64,000 bases of DNA from Escherichia coli. GTDB taxonomy: Bacteria > Pseudomonadota > Gammaproteobacteria > Enterobacterales > Enterobacteriaceae. The DNA lies in the NCBI RefSeq assembly GCF_036507355.1, contig NZ_AP027877.1. One strand, 5' to 3'. The position numbers are program-made. Positions 51,001 to 54,000 of this stretch are shown piece after piece (positions within the stretch are counted from its first letter, which is position 1; the number at the start of each line of letters is the position of its first letter).

Positions 51001-54000
51001 AACCCGGATGCGCTTTAACCCGAACCTTGATCCCGCGTGGTTTGGCGGGGTGATGGCAATCATCAACAACATTACCATGCTGGCGATTGTATTGACCGGA
51101 TCGGCGCTGATCCGCGAGCGTGAACACGGCACGGTGGAACACTTACTGGTGATGCCGATAACGCCGTTTGAGATCATGATGGCAAAGGTCTGGTCGATGG
51201 GGCTGGTGGTGCTGGTGGTGTCGGGATTATCGCTGGTGCTGATGGTGAAAGGCGTACTGGGTGTACCGATTGAAGGCTCGATCCCGCTGTTTATGCTGGG
51301 CGTGGCGCTCAGTTTGTTTGCCACCACGTCAATCGGCATTTTTATGGGGACGATAGCGCGTTCAATGCCGCAACTGGGGCTGCTGGTGATTCTGGTGCTG
51401 CTGCCGCTGCAAATGCTTTCCGGTGGATCCACGCCGCGCGAAAGTATGCCGCAGATGGTGCAGGACATTATGCTGACCATGCCGACGACACACTTTGTTA
51501 GCCTCGCGCAGGCCATTCTCTACCGTGGTGCAGGATTCGAAATCGTCTGGCCGCAGTTCCTGACGCTGATGGCAATTGGCGGCGCGTTTTTCACCATTGC
51601 GCTGCTGCGATTCAGGAAGACGATTGGGACAATGGCGTAAGGAAGGGAAACTTGACTTCATACTGTGATGTCATACTATTGATGTCATAAAGTGAAGTCA
51701 TAAGGACATGCCATGAGAACCAAGGTACAGGCTTTACGGAAGAAACAAAAAAATACATTGGATCAAATATTTAAAACTCCTGTTCCTCAAGGGATCAAGT
51801 GGTCTGATATAGAGTCACTGGTTAAAGCATTAGGCGGAGAAATTAAGGAAGGAAGAGGTTCGCGTTGTAAGTTCATACTAAATATGAGCGTTGCGTGTTT
51901 CCATCGGCCTCATCCGTCGCCAGATACCGATAAAGGCGCTGTAGAAAGCGTGCGTGACTGGTTACTAAGTATAGGGGTAAAACCATGATCAAACTGAAGA
52001 CGCCAAACTCTATGGAGATTGCCGGGCAACCTGCTGTTATCACTTACGTGCCAGAACTGAATGCATTTCGTGGCAAATTCCTGGGCTTGTCAGGTTATTG
52101 TGATTTTGTCTCTGACAGCATTCAGGGGCTGCAAAAAGAAGGGGAACTTTCCCTGCGAGAGTATCTTGAGGATTGTAAAGCTGCGGGTATTGAGCCGTAT
52201 GCGCGTACAGAAAAGATTAAGACCTTTACGTTACGCTATCCAGAATCGCTGAGTGAACGCCTTAATAATGCGGCTGCGCAGCAACAAGTCTCTGTTAATA
52301 CCTATATTATTGAAACACTGAATGAGCGTTTGAATCATTTATAAATTTTAGCGGCCCAACAATTTCTGTTGCGCCGCTATATTTTTGTGGCTCTTAAGAT
52401 GCCTTTCTAACCAACCGATGTCCCTCATTCATCATCAGAATTTTGCTATACACATCTTCCTCTACGGCGTTTTTTGCTGATGCCATCACTCGTGCCAGAT
52501 TCGCCTCGTTGTGATTATTCACATACGCTTTGCCGACGGCGGTGATAAACGCTTTGCGCAGATCGCTGGCGATATTTACTTTAGCGACGCGATAATTAAC
52601 AAAGCTGCGTAATATCTCCGGGGCGATACCGGAGCCGCCGTGAATAACCAACGGCACCGGACAGACTTCGGCAATGCGCTTCAGCAGGGGGATATCGATA
52701 CGCGGTATATCGTCCAGGCCATGAACGTTGCCAATAGAAACTGCCAGCATGTCGCAACCGGTACGCTCGACAAAGGTCTTCACCTTTTCCGGTTCCGTTT
52801 TGCAATCGGCTTCGCTGACATGATCATCTTCTTTGCCGAGAATCGCCCCCAGCTCCGCTTCAACCGGTACACCATAGGATTTACAGAAATCGACAGCTTC
52901 CTGGGTGAAAGCGATATTCTCTTCAAAAGAGAATGCGGCACCGTCAATCATGACCGAGGTAAAGCCCGCGCGCACCGCCTGTTTCACATCCTCCTGAGTT
53001 TTCCCGTGATCCAGATGAAGACTGACCGGAACATCCATTTTATCGGCGTGACGTTTCACGATTTCATAAATGTAATCGTATCCCGAGAGTTGTGCATTGG
53101 TTGGCGCAATCTGAATGAAGTTGGGTAATCCCGAACGCTCAATAGCGTTTAAAATTGAAATTGTCGTCTCCAGATTGGTGGTATTAAATGCGCCCGCTAA
53201 TACCCGTTTTTCCTGAATGCGGTCGAGCAGTATCCGTCCATTAACTAATGGCATATTGAAAACCTCATCTTTTAATATCAGTTAATTATTCAGCTTCACC
53301 GAAGCGGTCGCGAAATAAGTCGGTGAGAGTCTGTATGGCCTCGTTTTCATCATCACCGTCGCAGCGTATTTCCACCGTTTTTCCGCCTTTTATTCCGGCG
53401 CGCATAATATTCATCATGCTGGTGGCATTAATATCATTACCCTCATAGTGCAGCGTCACTTTACAGCTATATTTTTTGGCGGCTTTCGCCAGACAGGCCG
53501 CCGGACGTGCATGCAGGCCAGTACTGTTTCTGACCTCCACGGTTTTATTCAACATAGTGTTCCTCCCGATGATGTAATGGCATCACGCCTTCTTGTTGTA
53601 ATTTCAACTGATACCAGCTTTTCCATTTGTGCTGATAACGCTGTAATTGATGGTATCTCGCCCGATTCGGTAACAAACGTTGGGCTATAGCGACTGGCGG
53701 CGGTGGAATATCCGGTGCGGCGGTTAATAATGCTCCGACAGAAACCGCCTCGTTAAATGCAATTGCTTCAACCGGACGCTGTAAAATATCCGCCTTTAAT
53801 TGCAGCCAAAGAGGATTATGGGTTGCCGGACCGATCACTTTTAACGCGCTGGTGCCAGGCACGTTAAAACAGGCGAAGCAGTTGGCAAATTCCATGGTTA
53901 ATCCCAGTGATACGCTGGCAATTAACATGTCGATACTTAACGTATCGCCAAGCCCATAAAATAATCCACGGGTATGGCGATTTTTATAGGGCGAACCCGA

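Follow-up and report, generated by a model that had tools for sequence, protein, structure and literature searches.

HicA is, to our knowledge, among the least understood of the type II toxins; a single histidine is all that defines its active site. Here we describe a hicAB gene pair in a 64,000-nucleotide stretch of Escherichia coli DNA (contig NZ_AP027877.1 of assembly GCF_036507355.1; this whole stretch is termed the window and positions are counted from its first letter). The toxin of the pair carries arginine where that histidine is usually found, a trait that it shares with a large, conserved and mobile clade. The best explanation, which we consider highly probable, is a functional, self-repressing HicAB pair with a toxin of rearranged active site. 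A clade of this kind, without the defining histidine and with another invariant histidine nearby, constitutes a natural experiment on RNA cutting by HicA.

In the toxins studied the essential residue is a histidine at the start of strand β2, after a conserved glycine turn: His24 in Burkholderia pseudomallei and Neisseria gonorrhoeae, His28 in Yersinia pestis, His36 in Streptococcus pneumoniae and His23 in E. coli (PMC11594946, PMC6159526, PMC12297915). His40 of the gonococcal toxin, the 'PHP' histidine, is spatially near the catalytic residue yet dispensable (PMC12297915). In hicAB operons of class 4, hicA is placed 5′ of hicB and closely linked to it, and HicB bears at its C terminus a ribbon-helix-helix (RHH) domain (Gerdes, mBio 2024, PMC10865869).

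The B. pseudomallei pair (PDB codes 6G26 and 4C26) likewise has hicA 5′ of hicB and shares the glycine of the β1–β2 turn, although the identity in structural alignments is just 9% for HicB and 18–24% for HicA. Compared with that toxin, HicA of the window is longer at the N terminus by about 29 residues, folded into two helices in which L16, P23 and W30 are conserved. Clade-specific features are His64 and the motif FHRPHPSPDTDKG, and the catalytic His24 corresponds to Arg51. In S. pneumoniae HicBA (5YRZ) the toxin depends on His36 and in Y. pestis HicA3-HicB3 (4P78) on His28, both at the start of β2 where arginine is found here, and the operator sequences of those two systems are unrelated to that in the window. 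E. coli K-12 HicAB (hicA b4532, hicB b1438; 6HPB) has the superfamily, the toxin-first order and promoter autoregulation in common with the window pair, the last of these being predicted for the window. However, K-12 HicB has a helix-turn-helix (class 3 of Gerdes) rather than the RHH of class 4, the two pairs are not alignable by sequence and occupy different chromosomal sites, and the K-12 genes are 45 nt apart whereas those of the window overlap. The C-terminal 45 residues of window HicB, including the DNA-reading β-strand, align with Arc and AmrZ. The RHH repressors Arc, Mnt and AmrZ bind short tandem or inverted boxes over promoters and the boxes in the window are similarly placed; unlike in those proteins the RHH is here joined to a domain that binds the toxin, and the box reads TGA(C/A)(T/G)TCA. 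By profile, fold, partner and gene order the window pair belongs to the HicAB superfamily; it lacks one feature that defines characterised HicA toxins, the β2 histidine.

The gene pair and its toxin

The hicA gene (51713–51988, + strand) encodes 91 residues of the HicA family and hicB (51985–52344, + strand) encodes 119 residues, the latter a putative antitoxin and repressor. The open reading frames (ORFs) share 4 nt in an ATGA stop/start, and hicA starts 72 nt downstream of the stop codon of yhhJ (51638–51640). A sequence-only reading of the window had proposed two such overlapping ORFs just 3′ of yhhJ and had likened them to HicA and HicB. The ORFs are present where it placed them, and the families hold: Pfam profiles give HicA_toxin and HicB/RHH, fold comparison agrees, and the two proteins were not assigned to unrelated families. 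RefSeq names, 'type II toxin-antitoxin system HicA family toxin' and 'HicB family antitoxin', were already in place. This is a real HicA/HicB toxin–antitoxin pair, previously annotated, and the clade-wide replacement of histidine by arginine in the toxin is the single unusual feature of an otherwise ordinary locus. The ATGA overlap is kept in all eight distinct orthologous loci fetched; a 4-nt overlap is seen in Citrobacter, Serratia, Dickeya, Xenorhabdus, Leminorella, an Azospirillum metagenome-assembled genome (MAG) and metagenomic contigs, in differing neighbourhoods.

HicA matches the Pfam family HicA_toxin (PF07927, COG1724) over residues 30–80 with an E-value of 3.7e-9, and PHROG 8887 'toxin' over nearly its full length (E=7e-27). 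Two N-terminal helices (residues 2–19) precede an α-β-β-β-α core (residues 30–86), in which G49-S50-R51 is positioned at the β1–β2 turn and H64-R65-P66-H67-P68 after β3. The best structural matches to an AlphaFold2 model of HicA are solved HicA structures, with identities of 18–24% in the structural alignments.

HicB matches PF05534 (HicB) over residues 60–112 (E=3.5e-15), with weak matches to Arc/CopG; PF15919 (HicB_lk_antitox) was not detected in HicB, only PF05534 being matched. PHROG 9151 HicB-like antitoxin (E=6e-13) and a PHROG Arc-like repressor (E=1.3e-6) were also retrieved. In the AlphaFold2 model (pLDDT 86) an N-terminal sheet and long helix, strands at residues 8–43 and a helix at 46–67, make up a partial RNase H-like HicB fold and are followed by the ribbon-helix-helix. 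The best Foldseek match is B. pseudomallei HicB (6g26_B, probability 1.0, E=7e-3), and further matches are 6g26_A, 6u0i (HicB3), 2dsy (TTHA0281), 6hpb_B (E. coli HicB) and 6g1c. A profile of the HicB clade identified AmrZ (E=0.003) and Arc (E=0.0065) in the PDB over the last 45 residues, in keeping with an RHH DNA-binding domain, while a single-sequence phmmer search of the PDB with HicB gave chance-level matches plus Arc only. On these sequence features the pair is placed in class 4 of the Gerdes scheme. In a Shigella sonnei record marked 'partial' (P0127, 133 member sequences) the HicB ends at residue 102 and so is without the last RHH helix.

The toxin motif reads G49-S50-R51 where G-S-H is usual, a departure that the sequence-only reading had pointed out and that is real. 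In the HicA model R51 is the first residue of β2 after G49-S50, the position of the catalytic histidine in the literature, and the clade profile aligns R51 with the histidine of RGSH in the solved HicA 9svk_A, a weak match (E=0.1). Judged from the alignment and the predicted model, R51 occupies the canonical position of the catalytic histidine. An alignment of 27 diverse homologues (A1) has G49, S50, R51, H64, P66, H67 and P68 invariant. Residues were also counted in the 148 best representatives at 50% identity, which contribute 149 aligned stretches. The β2 histidine is lacking, with arginine in 143 of the 149 and histidine in one, whereas G49 and H64 are each present in 146 and H67 in 144. 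Where position 51 is Ala, Met or Ser, H64 is retained. On these counts Arg51 is a trait of the clade, not decay.

A profile search of 1.84 billion representatives returned 2458 relatives at E≤1e-3, of which 1015 reach E≤1e-10, and the clade exceeds 1000 clusters, clustering being at 50% identity. Between genera pN for hicA is 0.08–0.23 against a saturated pS of about 0.8, with similar values for hicB, which indicates that the clade is under strong purifying selection. Among phages, relatives of about 50% identity occur in 51 records (Burkholderia phage ST79 and Ralstonia phages); among plasmids they occur in 231 records, which include plasmids of 5.7–35 kb and small ones from Vibrio, Vitreoscilla and Legionella. 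Such carriage fits a working addiction or defence module. The sequence-only reading had considered the toxin non-canonical or inactive. The former stands, the β2 histidine being replaced by arginine, but inactivity is less likely because Arg51 is near-invariant in more than 1000 clusters, the clade is under purifying selection and relatives are carried on plasmids and phages. The sequence patterns point to the G-S-R toxin as a functional protein, probably active with an altered active site.

Within E. coli a 704-bp segment with the pair is found in 2074 of 5426 complete genomes (38%), chromosomal in every case, which answers the question of distribution raised by the sequence-only reading. Chromosomes of O157:H7 are 100% identical to the window across the hicAB segment. 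With respect to surroundings elsewhere, a metagenomic relative (L018, 110–1317) adjoins genes for an HNH-endonuclease-domain protein and Vsr, and another (L015) adjoins a resolvase gene; these neighbours hint at mobile or defence-type surroundings for some members of the clade.

Predicted promoter and operator

A σ70-like promoter is predicted at 51652–51679 (+ strand), with -35 TTGACT at 51652–51657, a 16-nt spacer and -10 TACTAT at 51674–51679; a consensus scan scores it as 9 of 12 consensus matches. Overlapping it is a putative HicB operator of four TGAnnTCATA boxes at 51653–51702 (+ strand; 51653–51662, 51666–51675, 51680–51689 and 51693–51702), the starts of which are spaced by 13, 14 and 13 bp. 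Box 1 overlaps the -35 element, boxes 2 and 3 flank the -10 element, and boxes 3 and 4 span the expected transcription start and the 5′ leader. The inner boxes are identical, TGATGTCATA occurring exactly twice (51666 and 51680), and are flanked by the outer boxes, TGACTTCATA at 51653 and TGAAGTCATA at 51693, the 8-mer cores of which, TGACTTCA and TGAAGTCA, are reverse complements of each other. This layout gives an inverted repeat with arms of 21 nt (71% complementary) as well as a direct repeat of 24 nt. The pattern TGANNTCATA has five matches on both strands of the window and four of the five fall within these 50 bp, a clustering upstream of hicA that is far above chance. The σ70-like promoter overlapped by direct repeats within an inverted repeat, as proposed from the sequence at the outset, is thus present.

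In Citrobacter, Serratia, Dickeya, Leminorella and Xenorhabdus the 75 bp 5′ of hicA contain boxes of the form TGA(C/A)(T/G)TCA, invariably paired at a distance of 13 bp. Relative to hicA they start at -72, -59, -32 and -19 in Serratia, at -70, -57, -31 and a degenerate -18 in Leminorella, at -60 and -33 plus degenerate partners in Dickeya, at -61, a degenerate -48, -34 and -21 in Citrobacter, and at -36 and a degenerate -23 in Xenorhabdus. The Serratia orthologue has a predicted promoter, TTGATC-17-CATAAT, with the -35 within box 2 and the -10 just 5′ of box 3. The intergenic sequence around the boxes has diverged between genera, and so has the gene neighbourhood, Citrobacter alone keeping the order yhhJ-hicAB-nikR. 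Since the boxes are kept across genera while the surrounding sequence differs, we read the repeats as a putative protein-binding operator of the HicB RHH tail. This conservation is the strongest evidence for that reading and strengthens the suggestion of an operator made beforehand. On the sequence side the arrangement is that of a type II toxin–antitoxin operator, with four repeated boxes over a predicted promoter. Folded as single-stranded DNA the operator is modestly better than shuffled sequences (z=-1.9), so that protein-binding symmetry is a better reading of the inverted repeat than a hairpin.

The alignment with Arc places T80, T82 and R84 of HicB at the base-contacting Q9, N11 and R13 of that repressor, and the three residues show little or no variation where the boxes are conserved. 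Two distant members with other upstream repeats have K/L/R and T/N/R at these positions. This fits covariation of the HicB reading head with its operator, albeit on anecdotal sequence comparisons. Upstream repeats of the GCGCTATCG type are found in the Azospirillum MAG (L015, 1370–1500) and repeats of the type TGGTAC...GGTACCA in metagenomic contigs (L018 and L019, 1400–1500).

Toxin loss, activity and role

Between about 793 and 808 complete genomes, approximately 39% of carriers, have a hicA-null allele with two lesions and an intact hicB. One exact 14-bp repeat unit (51666–51679, including the -10 element) is deleted, which leaves a three-box operator (L002, 3001–3080) and regenerates a promoter, TTGACT-16-TAAAGT. 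In addition, hicA codon 2 (51716–51718) is TAA; RefSeq calls a 76-residue ORF in this allele from a CTG without a Shine-Dalgarno sequence. In the 5′ part, 14 synonymous and five conservative changes set it apart from the window allele (about 10% divergence), whereas from codon 52 of hicA to the end of hicB the two alleles are the same at the nucleotide level. This mosaic identifies the null allele as a recombinant with a breakpoint inside hicA, and its sequence indicates recent loss of the toxin with hicB kept. Other frameshifts are known. An A7 homopolymer (51747–51753, + strand, hicA codons 12–14) has 1- or 2-nt deletions at or next to it in L003 and L004, both labelled 'frameshifted' by RefSeq, and these may reflect true slippage or sequencing errors at the homopolymer in long-read assemblies. 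A frameshift at the S50 codon (L020) is common in draft assemblies and occurs in only seven complete genomes. An active toxin would leave just one viable order of loss, toxin first, so the null alleles are equally compatible with toxin activity; the evidence from toxin loss therefore cuts both ways, such loss being enforced by an active toxin and yet marking the toxin as dispensable.

How might the pair work? One σ70 promoter would drive hicA and hicB, with translation coupled through the ATGA overlap. The N-terminal domain of HicB would bind HicA and hide its active face, as in solved HicAB complexes, and the RHH tails would pair and fill the four TGA(C/A)(T/G)TCA boxes, interleaved with the -35, the -10 and the start, so as to repress the operon. 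Free HicA, with its double-stranded RNA-binding domain fold, would most likely stop growth by cutting RNA, and catalysis may be carried out by a rearranged Arg/His cluster of R51, His64 at the end of β3 and His67 just after it. DSSP assigns β2 of the HicA model to residues 51–56 and β3 to 59–64, with a two-residue turn between. We tentatively suggest, on the predicted model, that the G-S-R clade is a distinct catalytic variant of HicA in which the general acid/base histidine has shifted from the start of β2 to the end of β3 (His64), with Arg51 and/or His67 assisting; this is possible but falls short of an even chance. If the histidine has indeed been relocated, RNA cleavage of the HicA type has been built in at least two ways. 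The extra N-terminal helices of the clade might alter the choice of substrate.

Several points weigh against a functional pair with a rearranged toxin. In studied HicAs only one residue is proven essential for catalysis, and that residue is absent here. H67 aligns with the 'PHP' histidine, equivalent to the dispensable gonococcal His40. The pairing of R51 and H64 across strands is derived from the strand register of a predicted model, not from coordinates or a model of the complex. The two proteins are only weakly linked by sequence to solved HicA and HicB chains: a single-sequence phmmer search of the PDB with HicA matched no HicA chain nor anything else, no NCBIfam model matches HicA or HicB, and hhalign of the clade alignments against single sequences of K-12 HicA and HicB yielded nothing but a spurious match of 13 columns, which for that reason was not used to place R51. 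The null allele, at about 39% of carriers, indicates that the toxin is dispensable in E. coli. Finally, we found no paper on the clade-wide substitution and no experiment on this pair or any G-S-R member, although literature coverage was incomplete and this is not proof of absence; under the same incomplete coverage no paper mentioning the RefSeq proteins was found. Two groups of papers were set aside as evidence. The 'non-toxic HicA' of Erwinia amylovora belongs to a pair with other protein sizes (59 and 136 residues), and the papers on hicAB in O157:H7 cite K-12 hicAB work without stating the locus assayed, which we take to be the K-12-type pair.

The main alternative concerning mechanism is a domesticated pair, in which HicA does not cleave RNA, is non-toxic and serves as a co-regulator that binds RNA or HicB, with HicB mainly a transcriptional repressor. 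The loss of the only residue proven essential in characterised HicAs is as expected for a dead toxin, as are the roughly 800 of 2074 carriers with a stop at hicA codon 2 and a nucleotide-identical hicB, and the further frameshift alleles of hicA. We nevertheless judge it unlikely. The near-invariance of G49, S50, R51, H64, P66 and H67 across more than 1000 clusters at 50% identity and a pN far under pS are not what an inert protein would be expected to display, carriage by small plasmids and phages fits a toxic addiction or defence function, and the null alleles are no less consistent with an active toxin, given the order of loss that retains the antitoxin. Should the toxin prove inert, the locus would be a warning against annotating a 'HicA family toxin' by profile alone.

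A different proposal is concerned with role rather than mechanism and is compatible with a functional, self-repressing pair: the main task could be phage defence by abortive infection, or exclusion of related mobile elements, from a chromosomal hotspot of accessory genes, and not stabilisation or a response to stress. The yhhJ–nikR site holds cargo that varies by strain (an Rhs element, a PTS island, ISAs1), relatives reside on plasmids and on temperate Burkholderia and Ralstonia phages, and HicA modules in general have been argued to serve defence (Gerdes 2024, PMC10865869). Against this, neither protein matches a PADLOC model (no family in PADLOC-DB v2 at E≤0.01), the immediate neighbours are genes for transport and sugar metabolism and not defence, and the same synteny in Citrobacter suggests long vertical residence, so we regard defence as the main role as doubtful. 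The idea that the ORFs and repeats are chance features of junction or intergenic DNA, or an RNA element, is already refuted. Nothing in its support was found, only short antisense ORFs being listed, and it conflicts with the strong matches in profile and fold searches and with the hundreds of homologues that are conserved; a search of Rfam with 51400–52600 at E≤1 was negative, so that a known RNA element there is ruled out.

The yhhJ–nikR junction and minor features

The junction between yhhJ and nikR is variable, as the sequence-only reading had supposed, placing yhhI, yhhH and rhsB at this site in K-12. K-12 has rhsB-yhhH-yrhC-yhhI between nikR and yhhJ, and no hicAB remnant is found in that interval. 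Other genomes have yhhJ-hicAB-nikR. In the window the order is yhhJ-hicAB-[aldolase, HPr, FGGY kinase, PTS, GntR]-nikR, the PTS/aldolase island being joined 14 nt 3′ of the hicB stop codon, at about 52358; without the island hicB runs straight into nikR (L005, 2205–2323). In a further configuration (strain BS-04; L008, 4001–4058) ISAs1 has inserted inside operator box 4, at the equivalent of about 51699 in the window; the hicAB genes are lost and the first 59 bp after yhhJ remain. The E. coli population provides ready controls, namely the intact allele, the three-box hicA-null allele and hicAB-free strains such as K-12.

A terminator-like hairpin and U-run (52349–52387, + strand; stem 52349–52379) lies between hicB and the convergent aldolase gene. 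The predicted RNA fold has an energy of -17.8 kcal/mol (z=-3.15), and the left half of the stem is derived from the hicB side of the junction and the right half from the PTS/aldolase island. Direct reading of the sequence identifies a Shine-Dalgarno AAGGA at 51702–51706 (+ strand), 6 nt 5′ of the hicA ATG. A Shine-Dalgarno-like AGGGG at 51973–51977 (+ strand) is within hicA, 7 nt 5′ of the hicB ATG.

Some records carry other names for these proteins. Among protein hits P0052, P0055, P0058, P0077, P0162 and P0177 and H108, HicA orthologues are labelled 'hexulose-6-phosphate synthase' and HicB orthologues 'DNA repair protein'. Such names, in Pectobacterium, Leminorella, Dickeya, Photorhabdus and some E. 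coli, look like propagated misannotation.

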